A stretch of 64,000 nt of DNA from a phage. A program made the position numbers and the translations under genes. A model generated the notes under the pieces. The model saw only the letters and a list, made by a program, of their open reading frames with translations, did no database searches and had not been told where the DNA came from. Positions within the stretch are counted from its first letter, which is position 1, and each line of letters opens with the position of its first letter. The stretch is from the NCBI GenBank assembly GCA_018296565.1, contig GCA_018296565.1_3935.1, one strand, 5' to 3'. Of this stretch, positions 25,925 to 29,787 are shown piece by piece.

Positions 25925-26329
25925 ATGAAACTTTGTAGAAAATGTTCTCAAGAAAAACCTTTAAGTTGCTTTCATAAAAGAGGGAATGGCTATCAGTCTG
26001 CTTGCAAAGATTGTAAAGCTAAGTACTCGGCAAAGAGATACAAAGAAGACCCTACTTATAAAGCAAAAAGAAAAGTTAGAGCAAAATATGACAAAAAGAG
26101 GAACAGAGAGTTCCTTAGTAGATATAAAAAGTTTTGCAAATGCAGATTATGTGGCGAATCTGAGCCAGTAGCTTTGGATTTTCATCACTTAGACCCTAAA
26201 GAGAAAGATTTTGCTCCAAGCAATCTTAAAACTTACTCTAGAGGAACTATTAAGCGTGAAGTCCGTAAGTGTGTTGTGCTTTGTTCAAACTGTCATAGAA
26301 AAGTTCATGCAGGGCTGTTAAGTATTTAA
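25925..26329 (+). CDS. HNH homing endonuclease
   Basis: Cys-rich N-terminus and LDFHHLDP ... CSNCHRKVH HNH motif; embedded in tRNA array. Confidence 0.7.
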   Translation: MKLCRKCSQEKPLSCFHKRGNGYQSACKDCKAKYSAKRYKEDPTYKAKRKVRAKYDKKRNREFLSRYKKFCKCRLCGESEPVALDFHHLDPKEKDFAPSNLKTYSRGTIKREVRKCVVLCSNCHRKVHAGLLSI

Positions 26330-26342
26330 CAGTCTTATTAGG

Positions 26343-26430
26343 GGTAGGTAGCGGCTAATGGTAGCCAAACTGTCTTGAAAACAGTTGCCACTGTAGAGAT
26401 ACGGTGAGGGTTCGACTCCTTTACTTACCG
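26343..26430 (+). tRNA. tRNA-Ser (anticodon TGA), long variable arm, CCA not encoded
   Basis: Anticodon stem actgt/acagt, loop cttgaaa, long variable arm, T-arm gagggttcgactccttt, discriminator G. Confidence 0.7.
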
Positions 26431-26582
26431 CCTAATAAGATTTAAAGCCAAGCTTCATTCGGATGTTGCTTTGGTATCCCTCGTGTATTGTCGTACACAC
26501 TGATAAAGCACCTAGTAGGTGTCACGGAGAAGAGATAATATCAAGCTCTCCAAAGGTTCTAGTCACCGGATTAAACAAGACT

Positions 26583-26606
26583 ATGCAAAGACCAAATTAG
26601 GTCTTT
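26583..26606 (+). terminator. terminator-like hairpin with T-run
   Basis: aagaccaaattaggtctt followed by TTTT. Confidence 0.4.
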
Positions 26607-26687
26607 TTAGAGGGCTTCTAAGGTTATTACAGCTTGTTGTGGAACATTGTTGCTTAGGTTCTTAGAAGTTCTCTAAAAAGATTTAAT

Positions 26688-26765
26688 GGGAGATTGACGG
26701 TAATTGGTAAACCTACCATCCTTAGAAGTTGGTGTTTGAGGGTTCGAATCCCTTGTCTCCTACCA
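26688..26765 (+). tRNA. tRNA with anticodon TAG (Leu by anticodon) but short variable arm
   Basis: Acceptor gggagat/gtctcct with G-U pairs, anticodon loop cttagaa, T-arm gagggttcgaatccctt, A73, CCA; variable arm only 5 nt. Confidence 0.55.
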
Positions 26766-26772
26766 AATTAAT

Positions 26773-26848
26773 GCAGGTGTAGCAAAATGGTTATGCGGCT
26801 GACTCTTAATCAGTAAGACGATGGGTTCAATTCCCTCCACCTGTACCA
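26773..26848 (+). tRNA. tRNA-Lys (anticodon CTT)
   Basis: Close paralog of the 25134 tRNA; anticodon loop ctcttaa. Confidence 0.7.
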
Positions 26849-26854
26849 GACATT

Positions 26855-26930
26855 GGGGATGTAGTTTACATGGTTAAAACATAAGTTTTGCAAACTTAAG
26901 TACAGGGTTCAATTCCCTGCTTCTCCACCA
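26855..26930 (+). tRNA. tRNA-Ala (anticodon TGC)
   Basis: G3-U70 wobble pair in acceptor stem, anticodon stem taagt/actta, loop tttgcaa, CCA. Confidence 0.75.
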
Positions 26931-26936
26931 ATTAGT

Positions 26937-27011
26937 GCATCCATAGTTTAAACGGGAAAATTACAGTCTTCCAAACTGAGGTTGAGGGTTCGATTCCCTC
27001 TGGATGCTCCA
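26937..27011 (+). tRNA. tRNA-Gly (anticodon TCC)
   Basis: Acceptor gcatcca/tggatgc, anticodon loop cttccaa, T-arm gagggttcgattccctc, CCA. Confidence 0.7.
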
Positions 27012-27017
27012 AACAAT

Positions 27018-27094
27018 GCTGCTTTCGTATAATTGGCTATTACACATCCCTTGTAAGGATGGAAATGCAGGTTCGAGTCCTGTGAGCAGCACCA
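27018..27094 (+). tRNA. tRNA-Thr (anticodon TGT)
   Basis: Anticodon stem catcc/ggatg, loop cttgtaa, T-arm gcaggttcgagtcctgt, CCA. Confidence 0.75.
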
Positions 27095-27190
27095 ATTCAG
27101 AGGTCAAGTGAAAGACCGCTTTGAGTCAACTGAAGACCGTAACAAATTCCACGGAGTTGAGTTAGCGGCACAACTCCAGACCTCTTTCAT

Positions 27191-27265
27191 ACTCGCTTAG
27201 TTTATATGGTAAAACATCACCCTTACAAGATGAAGAAAAAGGTTCAAGTCCTTTAGTGAGTACCA
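27191..27265 (+). tRNA. tRNA-Val (anticodon TAC)
   Basis: D-stem gttt/aaac, anticodon loop cttacaa, T-arm aaaggttcaagtccttt, CCA. Confidence 0.7.
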
Positions 27266-27266
27266 T

Positions 27267-27344
27267 GTTCCAGTATCCCAATTGGCAGAGGATGCAAGCT
27301 CAAACCTTGTACTAGTGACGGTTCGAATCCGTCTTGGAACACCA
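27267..27344 (+). tRNA. tRNA with anticodon CAA (Leu by anticodon) but short variable arm
   Basis: Acceptor gttccag/ttggaac, anticodon stem gcaag/cttgt, loop ctcaaac, T-arm gacggttcgaatccgtc, A73, CCA. Confidence 0.55.
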
Positions 27345-27349
27345 ATTTT

Positions 27350-27425
27350 GCAGGATTAGTTCAAATGGATAGAGCAACAGTCTACGAAGCTGTTAATAGG
27401 GGTTCGAATCCCTTATCCTGCGCCA
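27350..27425 (+). tRNA. tRNA-Arg (anticodon ACG)
   Basis: Perfect acceptor gcaggat/atcctgc, anticodon loop ctacgaa, T-arm aggggttcgaatccctt, CCA. Confidence 0.75.
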
Positions 27426-27443
27426 GATAAGCAAGAGGAATTT

Positions 27444-27686
27444 ATGCAAACATTAATCGTCGTTGAACATGAAAATCCCAATAGTATTGAGTTTGTAAGG
27501 GTTCCCACTATAGATACTCACATTTTCTTGAAAGTCGGATGGGAATGCGACCCGATAAAAGTAGGAAAATTTCTTGGTCATTACTTTGGTGGAAGACAAT
27601 TTAAAAGTATCAATTTTGAGACAGTATTACCAGAAAACTCAGAAACAGACAATAATACTTACCTCCTTACGAGGATTAGACAATGA
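27444..27686 (+). CDS. hypothetical small protein (inside tRNA array)
   Basis: AAGAGGA RBS, ATG start, 80 aa. Confidence 0.5.
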   Translation: MQTLIVVEHENPNSIEFVRVPTIDTHIFLKVGWECDPIKVGKFLGHYFGGRQFKSINFETVLPENSETDNNTYLLTRIRQ

Positions 27687-28240
27687 GATACTTAAAATAT
27701 GTTTCATGGATTTTCTTAGCTTTGTTAGAACCATTTGCAGCAACACTAGCAGTCATCTTAGCACCTTTCGTAGTTCCATTCTACAGTGAGAAGAAAGGGC
27801 ATCTACCTTTTGGATTCAGATGGATGGAGACCTATGACAACCCTATTGATGGTGACAAAGGCCACGTTGAGAGATGGGCTAAGATTAGAAAGATTGGTAA
27901 GCTTGGTGTCTACATGCAGAGAGTTGGATGGCTCTGGAGAAACAAAGCTTATAACTTCTCTTACCATGTATTAGGAAGAGATGTAAAAGACGTTACTAAG
28001 TGGAAAGGTAATATCAACGTAAGTTCTAACCCTGAAGATAATCAAACAGGTTATCTCCTAATGTGGAACAGTAATGCTTGGGGATTATTCGCTTTTATTC
28101 CATCAATTAAAATCTTTGGTAAACAGTTTTACTGGAGAATTTATATTGGATGGAAACTTAAAAGTGTTGTCCCAGAAGAAAGAGCATTCTCAAGGGAAAG
28201 AGTTATGTTGGCATTCTTTATTCATCCACTGAGAAAGTAA
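27683..28240 (+). CDS. hypothetical membrane-anchored protein (inside tRNA array)
   Basis: N-terminal hydrophobic segment WIFLALLEPFAATLAVILAPFVVPF; 185 aa. Confidence 0.5.
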   Translation: MRYLKYVSWIFLALLEPFAATLAVILAPFVVPFYSEKKGHLPFGFRWMETYDNPIDGDKGHVERWAKIRKIGKLGVYMQRVGWLWRNKAYNFSYHVLGRDVKDVTKWKGNINVSSNPEDNQTGYLLMWNSNAWGLFAFIPSIKIFGKQFYWRIYIGWKLKSVVPEERAFSRERVMLAFFIHPLRK

Positions 28241-28248
28241 AGATTTAA

Positions 28249-28324
28249 AGGGGATTAGTTTACAAGGTTAAAACCTCGGTCTTTGAAATCGAAGAAGTTG
28301 GTTCAATTCCAACATCCCCCGCCA
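28249..28324 (+). tRNA. tRNA-Gln (anticodon TTG)
   Basis: Anticodon loop ctttgaa, unpaired position 1-72 (A-C), T-arm gttggttcaattccaac, CCA. Confidence 0.7.
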
Positions 28325-28326
28325 AT

Positions 28327-28405
28327 GCTCCATTACTCCAATTGGCAGAGAGGCCAGACTTAAAATCTGTGTTATGTATCGGTTCGAATCCGATATGGAG
28401 TACCA
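28327..28405 (+). tRNA. tRNA with anticodon TAA (Leu by anticodon), variable arm about 7 nt
   Basis: Acceptor gctccat/atggagt, anticodon loop cttaaaa, T-arm atcggttcgaatccgat, A73, CCA. Confidence 0.55.
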
Positions 28406-28410
28406 AATTT

Positions 28411-28486
28411 AGCGGTATAGCATAACTGGCAATGCAACAGTCTCTGAAGCTGTCCTATTAAGGTTCAAATCCTTATGCCGCTGCCA
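28411..28486 (+). tRNA. tRNA-Gln (anticodon CTG)
   Basis: D-stem gcat/atgc, anticodon stem acagt/gctgt, loop ctctgaa, T-arm taaggttcaaatcctta, CCA. Confidence 0.7.
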
Positions 28487-28517
28487 CTTCTAAGGATTCT
28501 TACGAGAGTCCTTAAAT

Positions 28518-28593
28518 GTGGCCTTATCATAAAAGGTAATGACCCATGCTGTGAACATGGTCTATACGGGTTCAAATCCCGTAGGTCACCCCA
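28518..28593 (+). tRNA. tRNA-His (anticodon GTG)
   Basis: D-stem tcat/atga, anticodon stem ccatg/catgg, loop ctgtgaa, T-arm acgggttcaaatcccgt, CCA. Confidence 0.7.
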
Positions 28594-28598
28594 ATTTA

Positions 28599-28675
28599 TA
28601 GTCCAAGTAGCTTATATGGTTAAAGCGCGTGTCTGAAAAACATGAGAAGAGGGTTCAAATCCCACTGGACTACCA
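28599..28675 (+). tRNA. tRNA-Phe (anticodon GAA), ends approximate
   Basis: D-stem gctt/aagc, anticodon stem cgtgt/acatg, loop ctgaaaa, T-loop ttcaaat; acceptor register ambiguous. Confidence 0.55.
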
Positions 28676-28691
28676 ATTTCAAAGGTGCTTA

Positions 28692-29426
28692 ATGAAAGAG
28701 ATGACAGAACAAGGTAAGGAGATTTTTAATCTCTTAAAAACCGGTAAAGGGTTCTCTAACCCACTTATTACTGGTGCAGCAGTTCTCGGTGGAACCGTAG
28801 CTGCTTCTACATCACTTGTAAGCTCTATTAGTTCTGTAACAGACCCTACAATGAAGGAGAAACTTGTTGCTGCTGGACTTACAACAGTCCTTCTAAACAG
28901 CTTTACAACAAGCCTTACAAGCACTACAGCAACTACTAAGACCCTAACAGACTACGGTCAAAAGTCTATTGATGAGTTTTCATCACGTATGCAGGTAGCA
29001 AAGGGGTACTCCAATGTTATGGGTGCAGCAGGAGAACAAGTTGGTTGTACACCATTCAGTGGTATTATGGGTGTTGCTACAGAGTATGGTCAAAAAGCTA
29101 TTGACATGATGAACAGTACACTAGATAGTGTTAATGGTGTGTTAAGTGACTTACAAGATGCTATTGATAAGGGTCTTGATACTGTTTCTGATTTAGCTAA
29201 TCAGGCTGTTAGTAAGATTAATGAAGGTATTTCAAAGATTACAGCTTATGCAGATGAAGTTGTGCAGATGATTGAAGAAGAAGCTGCCCTTATTGCAGAG
29301 TACCTTAAAACGAATATCAATGGGTTCTTAGCAGGTGTCTTACCAGACTGGTTTGATGATGCCTGTAAAACTGGTGTGATTGACACTATTGCAACACCAG
29401 AAATGAAGAGCGCATTACAGAAATAA
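28692..29426 (+). CDS. hypothetical protein (Ser/Thr/Ala-rich)
   Basis: ORF-track start 28629 overlaps tRNA-Phe, so internal ATG at 28692 is preferred. Confidence 0.5.
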   Translation: MKEMTEQGKEIFNLLKTGKGFSNPLITGAAVLGGTVAASTSLVSSISSVTDPTMKEKLVAAGLTTVLLNSFTTSLTSTTATTKTLTDYGQKSIDEFSSRMQVAKGYSNVMGAAGEQVGCTPFSGIMGVATEYGQKAIDMMNSTLDSVNGVLSDLQDAIDKGLDTVSDLANQAVSKINEGISKITAYADEVVQMIEEEAALIAEYLKTNINGFLAGVLPDWFDDACKTGVIDTIATPEMKSALQK

Positions 29427-29428
29427 AT

Positions 29429-29521
29429 GGAAGATTAACCCTAAAAGGTAAGGGAGCAGTTTGCTAAACTGCCAGTAGCTGAGAAATCGGTGTACCAGTT
29501 CAAGTCTGGTATCTTCCTCCA
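29429..29521 (+). tRNA. tRNA-Ser (anticodon GCT), long variable arm
   Basis: Perfect acceptor ggaagat/atcttcc, anticodon stem gcagt/actgc, loop ttgctaa, long variable arm, T-arm accagttcaagtctggt, CCA. Confidence 0.75.
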
Positions 29522-29525
29522 ATTT

Positions 29526-29601
29526 GAATCCGTGACAGAAATGGCCATGTGCCTGTCTGCAAAACAGGTTTATAAGGGTTCGAGTCCCTTCGGATTCTCC
29601 A
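29526..29601 (+). tRNA. tRNA-Cys (anticodon GCA)
   Basis: Acceptor gaatccg/cggattc, anticodon stem cctgt/acagg, loop ctgcaaa, T-arm aagggttcgagtccctt, CCA. Confidence 0.75.
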
Positions 29602-29763: not shown

Positions 29764-29787
29764 GACGGTCTCTGTACCGTCTTTTTT
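29764..29787 (+). terminator. rho-independent terminator
   Basis: gacggtctctgtaccgtc followed by TTTTTT. Confidence 0.6.

Follow-up and report, generated by a model that had tools for sequence, protein, structure and literature searches.

The window analysed here, i.e., the whole stretch of 64,000 nt of DNA, belongs to Felixounavirus, a Felix O1-like phage, and carries a tRNA array in which three leucine tRNA genes are embedded. A few small ORFs of unassigned function (DUF7338, DUF7217) interrupt the array, and it is syntenic across Felixounavirus, Mooglevirus, and Kolesnikvirus records. The features considered in this work, with coordinates in the window, are as follows.

24036..29601, + strand: tRNA array, 27 ARAGORN calls, all on the + strand
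24534..24621, + strand: tRNA-Tyr(GUA), 88 nt, extra arm V=15, internal class II control (ARAGORN)
26343..26432, + strand: tRNA-Ser(UGA), 90 nt, long extra arm V=20, G73, internal class II control (ARAGORN)
26688..26765, + strand: tRNA-Leu(UAG), type I, 78 nt including the encoded CCA (ARAGORN; Rfam)
27267..27344, + strand: tRNA-Leu(CAA), type I, 78 nt including the encoded CCA (ARAGORN; Rfam)
28327..28405, + strand: tRNA-Leu(UAA), type I, 79 nt including the encoded CCA (ARAGORN; Rfam)
29429..29521, + strand: tRNA-Ser(GCU), 93 nt, long extra arm V=21, internal class II control (ARAGORN)

A long extra arm is a textbook feature of leucine tRNAs. In the three Leu genes, the stretch between the 5-bp anticodon stem and the 5-bp T stem, taken as the variable region, reads UGUUU (5 nt) in Leu(UAG), ACUAGU (6 nt) in Leu(CAA), and GUUAUGU (7 nt) in Leu(UAA), and an extra arm has no room because only 75 to 76 nt precede the CCA. 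We counted a tRNA-Leu as class II (long-arm) when its variable region exceeded 10 nt and formed a stem-loop; host leuV, T4, and T5 have such arms, and the three phage genes fall short of this length. An earlier note on this DNA, which was based on folding by hand, had given the same starts, ends, and anticodons for the three genes, and ARAGORN returns exactly these values. A73 in all three, their variable regions of 5 to 7 nt, and the long arms of the array's Ser and Tyr tRNAs are likewise what ARAGORN finds, with Rfam in agreement on the tRNAs. The worry expressed there, that the manual folds could be off by a register, proved unfounded, and the outcomes named as fatal to the claim, i.e., other anticodons or a long arm upon program folding, did not appear.

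All three genes score above the gathering score of the Rfam tRNA model (RF00005, 29 bits), with 40.0 bits for Leu(UAG), 43.6 bits for Leu(CAA), and 47.5 bits for Leu(UAA). In the cloverleaves drawn by ARAGORN, the acceptor stem is 7 bp, the T-stem 5 bp, and the anticodon loop 7 nt with U33, and the anticodons UAG, CAA, and UAA have the NAG or YAA form by which leucine codons are read. Leu(CAA) has G1-C72 and a 3-bp D-stem closing an 11-nt D-loop, CAAUUGGCAGA; Leu(UAA) has the same D-stem length and D-loop, with G1.U72 and the anticodon loop CUUAAAA. Leu(UAG) has a G1.U72 wobble, a U.U mismatch in the anticodon stem, and one extra nucleotide in the D-arm, which ARAGORN draws as a 3-nt spacer and the covariance-model alignment as a C bulging from a 3-bp D-stem. 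We considered G1.U72 as a Leu-specific mark and dropped it, since it is equally frequent in phage Glu, Val, Lys, and Ile tRNAs. Single-sequence minimum free energy (MFE) folding missed the cloverleaf and returned just its acceptor and T arms (z = -0.3 to -1.6), a result that, taken on its own, is counted neither way. One GenBank record labels its copy of Leu(UAG) as "tRNA-OTHER" and pseudo and another as tRNA-Leu; the armless form would explain such occasional calls by annotation pipelines.

The low generic covariance scores, the pseudo/OTHER label in one record, the weak MFE folds, and the bulge and mismatch of Leu(UAG) could be read as marks of decaying or non-translational relics, i.e., pseudogenes, processing signals, or decoys. 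However, we consider such relics very improbable in view of how these genes vary among related phages, a comparison that the earlier note had proposed. Between the window and Mooglevirus HP1, which is of a different genus, Leu(UAG) and Leu(UAA) are 100% identical and Leu(CAA) is 98.7% identical, against 66% in the spacers and 76% in the CDS. In the Leu(UAG) of a Felix-like contig, L072, the sole differences are eight compensatory changes by which the whole anticodon stem is replaced. The Kolesnikvirus ortholog of Leu(CAA) shares 17 of 17 D-arm nucleotides with the Felix gene, and in the other three stems seven base pairs are changed on both sides with none broken. Across the wider type I Leu family, 98% of cells are paired, and there are 453 double-sided changes versus 120 in shuffles. 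Because of the 99 to 100% identity against 66% in the spacers, together with the compensated stem rewrites, the three Leu genes are judged to be under selection as tRNAs; U33 with intact anticodon loops, the conserved T-loops, and the encoded CCA also speak against relics. In phage Sf14, the copies of Leu(CAA) and Leu(UAA) are 1 nt each from the window genes, and the Leu(UAG) slot holds a different type I gene.

E. coli leucyl-tRNA synthetase (LeuRS) requires A73, A15-U48, G18G19, and A20a but neither the arm nor the anticodon, and arm-less variants are active (PMC9976931). The published set is kept in the phage genes: A73, U8-A14, A15-U48, G18G19, A20a, and an 11-nt D-loop closed by a 3-bp stem, as in host leuV, whose 3-bp D-stem carries the loop GAAUUGGUAGA. 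A73 occurs in all three, as do T8, A14, A15, and a T just 5' of the T-stem, and the T-loop of all three is TTCGAAT, with U54, U55, C56, and A58 in place. G18G19 and A20a on a 3-bp D-stem are found in the shared loop of Leu(CAA) and Leu(UAA); in Leu(UAG) they lie in UAAUUGGUAAA, next to a stem with the bulged C, and the D-arm identity positions are displaced by the 1-nt insertion. Among 88 unique viral type I Leu tRNAs, U8, A14, A15, G18, G19, A20a, U48, and A73 are invariant. The combined signature is present in 69 to 91% of type I Leu tRNAs, in 58 to 84% of long-arm Leu tRNAs, and in 0 to 8% of any other isotype. Within the window, its fixed-position form is found in Leu(CAA) and Leu(UAA) only, Leu(UAG) having the shifted version.

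A dedicated covariance model (R1) was also used. Briefly, it was built from 54 diverse type I Leu tRNAs from other phages, with the Felixounavirus copies left out. Leu(UAA), Leu(CAA), and Leu(UAG) score 77.0, 74.1, and 66.8 bits, respectively, and take ranks 1 to 3 of the 27 array tRNAs; Glu follows at 63.3 bits, which leaves Leu(UAG) a margin of just 3.5 bits. The gain over the generic Rfam score is 27 to 30 bits for the three Leu genes and at most 7 bits for all others. In published tRNAscan-SE isotype scores, Leu ranks top in all three Sf14 genes, i.e., in Leu_CAA (49.1), in Leu_TAA (60.2), and in Leu_TAG, which is not the window's gene, where Leu (67.4) is followed by Ile2 (65.7) and Lys (63.4) (PMC12482277).

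The earlier note had offered two readings, structurally unusual tRNA-Leu species or charging with a different amino acid, and the results divide them. According to the second, the three tRNAs, which lack the class II hallmark, would be charged with a non-Leu amino acid or ambiguously mischarged, so that Leu codons are recoded; the missing arm, the close runner-up isotypes in Sf14's own Leu_TAG, and the failure of E. coli LeuRS on another type I tRNA-Leu (see below) point in this direction. We find it hardly credible all the same, as the full LeuRS identity set is present and the marks of the other candidates are absent: tRNA-Ser has a long arm and G73, whereas the three genes are armless with A73, and the G3.U70 of tRNA-Ala is replaced by G-C in Leu(UAG) and by U-A in both Leu(CAA) and Leu(UAA). 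Moreover, UAG, CAA, and UAA are unlike the anticodons required by the anticodon-reading synthetases (identity rules, PMC9976931), and Leu is the top isotype in all three Sf14 genes. The cognate codons are the majority of the phage's Leu codons and include must-be-Leu sites in conserved proteins such as the terminase and DNA polymerase; recoding would be catastrophic because the three tRNAs read most Leu codons of the phage. Unusual Leu tRNAs, with Leu anticodons and the full identity set, is the reading that is supported.

The codon usage fits genes of this kind. The phage is 39% G+C and uses A/U-rich Leu codons far more than the host does, with shares of 29% for TTA, 27% for CTT, 14% for TTG, and 11% for CTA (n = 963 Leu codons). 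No phage LeuRS or other synthetase was found among the large or array-embedded ORFs of the 64-kb window (the genome is roughly 87 kb).

The three genes are most likely working Leu tRNAs because every feature that host LeuRS is known to need is kept. Judging from sequence, they are probably functional type I Leu isoacceptors that are charged by the host LeuRS and serve the A/U-rich Leu codons. Structure, conservation, covariation, identity elements, and codon usage are directly observed, and from these we infer expression, leucylation, and translational use of the three tRNAs. They would be transcribed inside the phage tRNA array, mature using their encoded CCA, and be aminoacylated by the leucyl-tRNA synthetase of the host (E. 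coli or Salmonella); the UAA and CAA anticodons would then decode UUA/UUG, and the UAG anticodon CUN. It seems that the arm could disappear from these tRNAs because LeuRS tolerates its loss. A promoter scan gave 16 matches versus a shuffled expectation of 14 ± 4, i.e., no excess. In our weighing, the bulge and U.U mismatch of Leu(UAG), the low generic scores (40 to 47.5 bits), the "pseudo" label, and the weak MFE folds were counted against this explanation, as were the narrow R1 margin of Leu(UAG) and the failure of E. coli LeuRS on the Streptomyces type I tRNA-Leu (see below).

Among the closest known systems is the canonical bacterial type II tRNA-Leu (e.g., E. coli leuV/leuP/leuQ, 87 nt), which shares with the phage genes the Leu anticodons, A73, the 3-bp D-stem, the 11-nt D-loop of the form N-AAUUGG-N-A-G-A, A15/U48, G18G19, A20a, and the standard T-loop. 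It differs by a stem-loop arm of about 15 nt where the phage genes have just 5 to 7 unpaired nucleotides, and the phage copies are A/U-richer, two of them with G1.U72, and Leu(UAG) has A37 versus G37 in the host. Biochemical precedents for such a shortened molecule are laboratory constructs: in arm-less E. coli tRNA-Leu (the Larkin 2002 minimal substrates), LeuRS charging survives deletion of the whole arm (PMC9976931), and in the arm-less VLAD mutant, TrmL methylation is intact (PMC4615657), whereas the phage genes occur naturally and have been maintained in evolution.

A natural relative is the type I tRNA-Leu(CAA) of Streptomyces coelicolor, which, like the phage genes, has a short variable loop (5 nt, ACAGC) and which coexists with type II Leu tRNAs, a single LeuRS serving both (PMC6614811). 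A73 is no identity element there, and charging needs the leucine-specific domain of ScoLeuRS (PMC6614811). E. coli LeuRS could not leucylate this tRNA and has been described as type II-only (PMC6614811). The Streptomyces tRNA has C48, whereas the phage genes have a conserved U48; unlike it, they keep the E. coli-type identity set, and their hosts have an E. coli-type LeuRS. Animal mitochondrial tRNA-Leu(UUR/CUN) is also type I and armless, with identity via A73 and A14 (PMC9976931); however, it is organellar, often degenerate, and served by a dedicated mitochondrial LeuRS, whereas the D and T loops of the phage genes are canonical. In horizontally acquired tRNA clusters of Mycobacterium, a short-loop tRNA-Leu(TAG) is array-borne beside normal chromosomal long-arm copies (PMC6582537); it belongs to another host clade and is mentioned in passing, without analysis of identity elements (PMC6582537).

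Other coliphages have Leu isoacceptors in tRNA clusters as well, with A73 and a Leu-type D-loop, but T4 tRNA-Leu(UAA) is an 87-nt class II tRNA, and in T5 tRNA-Leu(UAG) (85 nt) the arm is reduced to about 13 nt. Where T5 has this gene, in an Ala-Leu-Ser-Ser order, its relative Spc35 has a type I Leu(UAG) of 77 nt; the Spc35 gene is about 82 to 84% identical to the window Leu(UAG) and nearer to the Felix gene than to that of T5. The reduced-arm T5 gene was considered as a direct ancestor of the armless Spc35/Felix gene and dropped. Gene replacement seems likelier than in-place deletion because the T5 and Spc35/Felix sequences differ throughout the stems.

Type I tRNA-Leu is recurrent in viral contigs and bacterial tRNA arrays, with at least 175 unique sequences. 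A length-blind motif scan had given 73% of viral Leu tRNAs as type I; we dropped this figure as motif bias after an independent viral sample, recruited via tRNA-Arg(UCU), contained 2 short versus 31 long Leu tRNAs, i.e., about 6% short. A scan of cellular genomes, to which the same caveat of motif bias extends, located comparable genes within dense tRNA arrays in several phyla. Searching Leu(CAA) by blastn against 5,426 E. coli genomes gave no match, but with a query of 75 nt against 28 Gb this carries no information. The phage genes are most likely members of a little-noticed short tRNA-Leu type. Our literature search found no explicit description of a phage type I tRNA-Leu, and the papers on Felix O1, wV8, Sf14, and phage tRNAs make no mention of the arm.

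The arm loss could also be adaptive in itself, i.e., the armless tRNAs would decode Leu and at the same time resist a nuclease or toxin which recognizes the arm or shape of host tRNA-Leu. Such a nuclease could belong to the defences of the host or be encoded by the phage for host shut-off, and phage translation would continue while the host tRNA-Leu is damaged. T4 infection reportedly cleaves host tRNA-Leu in the extra arm, which would favour this explanation. That phage tRNAs can resist nucleases is established for Tyr (retron-Eco7 PtuAB), Lys (PARIS AriB), and Thr (P2 OLD), and altered stems are among the routes of resistance (PMC12445682). The Leu(UAG) slot shows turnover of alleles, with the different type I gene in Sf14 and the rewritten anticodon stem in L072, and the anticodon loops are unlike those of the host, e.g., A37 versus G37 in host Leu(UAG) (PMC12482277). 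On the other side, the literature search turned up no nuclease reported to act in these hosts on tRNA-Leu or on the variable arm, the arm is kept in T4 and in most viral Leu tRNAs, and the type I Leu family also occurs in bacterial genomes, even as singleton genes. LeuRS tolerance and deletion drift would account for the pattern without selection. We give an adaptive loss of the arm an outside chance, and a somewhat slimmer one to the proposal that arm shedding and the repeated rewriting of the anticodon stem are together an escape from a postulated nuclease or toxin that recognizes class II host tRNA-Leu, with the loss selected and not merely tolerated.

The three conserved armless Leu tRNAs, with the E. 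coli identity set intact, are carried by a whole subfamily of coliphages and Salmonella phages in common use, among them the Felix O1 group used in diagnostics and biocontrol. They allow the dispensability of the arm for LeuRS, concluded from in vitro work, to be tested on natural molecules; to our knowledge, the type I tRNA-Leu of Streptomyces is the only bacterial exception that has been studied. They may also serve as compact, ready-made Leu tRNA scaffolds for engineering, and arm versus no arm gives a concrete structural variable for the phage-host conflict over tRNAs. The extra arm is a known synthetase identity element for Ser, and Ser in the same arrays never lost its arm; the contrast with Leu may be taken as an evolutionary read-out of synthetase recognition rules. 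Tyr has also retained its arm in the array.

ARAGORN called 27 tRNA genes in the window, all on the + strand and spanning 24036-29601, among them three leucine tRNA genes:

26688-26765, + strand, tRNA-Leu(tag), 78 nt including the encoded CCA
27267-27344, + strand, tRNA-Leu(caa), 78 nt including the encoded CCA
28327-28405, + strand, tRNA-Leu(taa), 79 nt including the encoded CCA

The variable region is UGUUU (5 nt) in Leu(UAG), ACUAGU (6 nt) in Leu(CAA), and GUUAUGU (7 nt) in Leu(UAA), and the ARAGORN cloverleaves and bracket strings place A73 in all three genes. Controls with real extra arms come from the same array: a Tyr tRNA of 88 nt and two Ser tRNAs of 90 and 93 nt. These calls reproduce what an earlier note had obtained by hand-folding: the coordinates and anticodons, the A73 discriminator, variable regions of 5-7 nt, and long-armed Ser and Tyr tRNAs. 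Its worry that the folds were off by a register can be set aside, since with 75-76 nt ahead of the CCA an arm fits in no alternative register. The Rfam general tRNA model matches the three genes with low generic scores of 40.0 (UAG), 43.6 (CAA), and 47.5 bits (UAA), the gathering score being 29 bits; single-sequence MFE folding of the Leu genes did not recover the cloverleaf. Leu(UAG) has two imperfections, a D-arm bulge and one U.U mismatch in the anticodon stem. Its D-arm holds one extra nucleotide, drawn by ARAGORN with a 3-nt spacer and placed by covariance-model alignment in a 3-bp D-stem, where a C bulges out.

For Escherichia coli LeuRS, the identity elements are A73, the Levitt pair A15-U48, G18G19, A20a, and D/T-loop tertiary pairs; the anticodon and the long arm are not required, and arm-deleted variants are still active (PMC9976931). 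All of the elements named there were found in the three phage genes. The D-arm of E. coli K-12 leuV has a 3-bp stem and an 11-nt loop, GAAUUGGUAGA; in phage Leu(CAA) and Leu(UAA) the stem is likewise 3 bp and the loop is CAAUUGGCAGA, and the D-loop of Leu(UAG) is UAAUUGGUAAA. Across 88 unique 77-nt viral type I (short variable loop) Leu tRNAs, U8, A14, A15, G18, G19, A20a, U48, and A73 are invariant, some of them imposed by the search pattern but not U8, A20a, U48, and A73, and the sequence at helix positions is close to random. The full LeuRS signature is carried by 69-91% of type I tRNAs with Leu anticodons, 58-84% of long-arm Leu tRNAs, and 0-8% of any other isotype. Within the window, only Leu(CAA) and Leu(UAA) of the 27 tRNAs have it at fixed positions; in Leu(UAG) it is present but displaced by the insertion.

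A set of 54 diverse type I Leu tRNAs, none of them a Felixounavirus copy, was used to build a covariance model, and the alignment behind it covaries strongly (98% of cells paired; 453 double-sided changes versus 120 ± 10 in shuffles). Under this model UAA (77.0 bits), CAA (74.1), and UAG (66.8) rank first to third of the 27, followed by Glu as the best non-Leu tRNA (63.3); the gain over the generic Rfam model is 27-30 bits for the three Leu genes and at most 7 for every other tRNA. In the Mooglevirus phage Sf14, tRNAscan-SE isotype scoring put the Leu model on top for Leu_CAA (49.1) and Leu_TAA (60.2), and also for its own Leu_TAG (67.4), a gene unlike that of the window; the variable arm is unmentioned in that paper (PMC12482277). 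Sf14 Leu_CAA and Leu_TAA are each 1 nt apart from their window counterparts. By their sequences, the three genes look like leucine tRNAs in all but the arm. The earlier note had left a choice between structurally unusual Leu tRNAs and tRNAs charged with another amino acid. The former stands, with the identity set kept; the latter is hardly probable given the Leu-type identity elements, signature, and model ranks.

Two further features were seen in these genes. A G1.U72 wobble opens both Leu(UAG) and Leu(UAA). Among unique viral tRNAs of loci L005-L161 its share is 43% for type I Leu, 31% for long Leu, 41% for Glu, 38% for Val, 36% for Lys, 32% for Ile, and 23% for Arg, and it is 0-4% in viral Ala, Gly, Thr, Ser, Tyr, Pro, Asp, Asn, Cys, His, and Gln tRNAs; the wobble seems to be a general trait of phage tRNAs that only certain isotypes tolerate. 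The anticodon loop of Leu(UAG), which reads CUN, is CUUAGAA (26722-26728), hence A37, as in 84% of the 88 viral type I Leu tRNAs, whereas the loop of the host CUN isoacceptor is UUUAGGU, with G37 (PMC12482277); phage Leu(UAG) may therefore go without the host-type modification at G37.

There is one precedent on the opposite side. Streptomyces coelicolor has a natural type I tRNA-Leu(CAA) that E. coli LeuRS could not leucylate; Fan et al. described this E. coli enzyme as charging type II (long-arm) tRNAs only (PMC6614811). The Streptomyces tRNA has the variable loop ACAGC and C at position 48, unlike the phage type I family, in which U48 invariably faces A15, the E. coli determinant. This difference at position 48 may be a reason why the phage tRNAs would behave otherwise.

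Matches to the tRNA region came from 258 phage records (80-99% identity), virtually all of which are Felix O1-like myoviruses infecting Escherichia, Salmonella, Shigella, and Citrobacter. Against the Mooglevirus phage HP1, Leu(UAG), Leu(CAA), and Leu(UAA) are 100, 98.7, and 100% identical, as compared with 66% for spacers, 76% for CDS, and 91% for all tRNAs together. Leu(UAG) of L072, a Felix-like metagenomic contig, equals the window gene, bulged D-arm included, except for the anticodon stem, where ccatc/gttgg with its U.U mismatch becomes tctcg/cgaga with five Watson-Crick pairs; all eight differences fall on paired bases of the stem, and the helix survives. In Kolesnikvirus phages, which infect Erwinia and Cronobacter, the Leu(CAA), Leu(AAG), and Leu(UAA) genes are likewise type I, at 77-78 nt, and the Kolesnikvirus Leu(CAA) shares 17 of 17 D-arm nucleotides with the Felix gene and differs by seven double-sided pair changes in the acceptor, anticodon, and T stems, with no pair broken. 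That the three genes are non-functional relics is very improbable in view of the conservation against HP1 and the compensated stem changes in relatives; on this comparative pattern they are under selection as tRNAs.

In Sf14, the Leu(UAG) slot holds a different, unrelated type I Leu(UAG) gene; alleles have therefore been exchanged, and the occupant of the slot has remained an armless Leu tRNA. The turnover is seen by comparing window 26688-26765 with L072 and with L283:3356-3432. This turnover, together with an analogy to phage Tyr, Lys, and Thr tRNAs, would agree with arm loss as an adaptive evasion of a nuclease; T4 infection reportedly induces a cut in host tRNA-Leu. However, no nuclease against tRNA-Leu or its arm was found in the literature searched, and we regard such an evasion as unlikely. 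Elsewhere in the array, conservation against HP1 (comparison with locus L282) is mosaic: most tRNAs are 90-100% identical, and Glu (24120-24197, 64%), Thr (27018-27094, 71%), and Trp (25840-25910, 58%) have diverged like spacers, which suggests replacement or decay of genes at particular positions.

A pattern that joins the Leu-type D-loop and a Leu anticodon loop to a short variable gap and a TTCGAAT T-loop matches at least 120 viral contigs, in which ARAGORN found at least 175 unique type I Leu sequences. Among the matches listed, A73 is present in 189 of 202 type I Leu gene copies, the variable region is mostly 5 nt and sometimes 6 or 7, and every Leu anticodon is represented. A length-blind pattern gave 87 short versus 32 long in viral contigs and ~27 short versus 85 long in species-representative bacterial and archaeal genomes, ratios that are biased by the motifs. 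Viral loci recruited independently via tRNA-Arg(UCU) had 31 long and 2 short neighbouring Leu tRNAs (~6%); type I tRNA-Leu is therefore not the viral norm but a recurrent minority family. Many cellular short Leu tRNAs lie in dense arrays of 14-34 tRNAs per 8 kb (genome contig loci L165, L168, L180, L193, L202, L210, L211, L219, and L277), the assemblies being in many cases MAGs of Acidobacteriota, Polyangia, Haliangiales, and Rhodocyclaceae; singletons occur in actinomycetes (Nocardia L175, Jatrophihabitans L184). Armed Leu tRNAs matching the same pattern have a modal variable region of 13 nt in viruses (L125-L161) and 15 nt, with a tail to 24, in cells (L162-L281). The 13-nt arm of T5 agrees with the shorter viral arms, and there may be a general drift to smaller arms among phage Leu tRNAs.

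SerRS relies on the arm as a major identity element, whereas LeuRS can do without it (PMC9976931). In the 120 viral loci, among the matches listed, ARAGORN gave 202 short and 57 long Leu tRNAs, 0 short and 106 long Ser tRNAs, and 1 short and 35 long Tyr tRNAs; short Leu beside long Ser fits the synthetase recognition rules. No synthetase was found among the large or array-embedded ORFs of the window. We infer that the three Leu tRNAs would be made from the array, charged by host LeuRS, and used to decode UUA/UUG and CUN, and a working armless tRNA-Leu of this kind is in our judgment the probable explanation. CUG is the dominant Leu codon of E. coli, where the isoacceptors with UAA, CAA, and UAG anticodons are minor ones. 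The 963 Leu codons in 40 ORFs of the window are TTA (29.3%), CTT (27.4%), TTG (14.4%), CTG (12.5%), CTA (11.0%), and CTC (5.4%); Leu[TTA] was already among the codons aided by phage tRNA in the Felix O1 genome paper. Host modification need not be lost without the arm; TrmL acts normally on an E. coli tRNA-Leu(CAA) stripped of its entire arm (PMC4615657).

Type I tRNA-Leu is already known from animal mitochondria (PMC9976931) and Streptomyces (PMC6614811), and a short-loop tRNA-Leu(TAG) of a horizontally acquired mycobacterial tRNA cluster is mentioned in one sentence (PMC6582537). GenBank has listed the present genes as tRNA-Leu from the Felix O1 sequence onward, and public annotation keeps that name, except for one record with the UAG copy as 'tRNA-OTHER', pseudo; the original genome papers on Felix O1 and wV8 listed the tRNAs and passed over the structure. 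Our literature search found no description of armless Leu tRNAs in phages, nor do they appear in reviews of tRNA identity and non-canonical tRNAs or in recent phage-tRNA papers. The three genes represent a type I tRNA-Leu that is natural, conserved, and carried by phages, and that retains the E. coli-type identity set, in hosts whose LeuRS is reported to refuse another type I tRNA-Leu. Among better-known phages, T4 Leu(UAA) is class II (long-arm) with 87 nt and T5 Leu(UAG) has 85 nt with a reduced arm. In T5-like Spc35, the gene at T5's syntenic position is a type I Leu(UAG) of 77 nt, nearer to the Felix gene than to T5's. Window-type Leu(UAG) is ~82-84% identical to Leu(UAG) of T5-like phages, e.g., Spc35 and EC100, a similarity that suggests exchange of tRNA genes between unrelated phage families.

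Three ARAGORN calls fall under the Rfam gathering score, Trp(cca) 25840-25910, Met(cat) 24288-24364, and Tyr(gta) 24534-24621. With low scores under every model and just 58% identity in the HP1 comparison, the 71-nt Trp call may be a degenerate gene or not a true tRNA. The tRNA region also occurs in GU169904.1, a 147-kb record named Staphylococcus phage SA1 (95.7% identity, 99% of the query covered). Its presence under that host name is unexpected and points to chimerism or contamination in the assembly. Two promoter-like sites (23889-24009, + strand), each with 10 of 12 consensus positions, stand just ahead of the first tRNA, such sites overall showing no enrichment over shuffles, and a terminator-like hairpin followed by TTTTTT (29764-29781, + strand) lies ~160 nt past the last tRNA. 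Directly upstream of the array, a 471-aa ORF (22455-23870, + strand) matches DUF2828 and DUF7788 and is named 'vWFA protein' or 'RNA-binding protein' in related records; it is possibly an RNA-binding protein adjoining the tRNA array.
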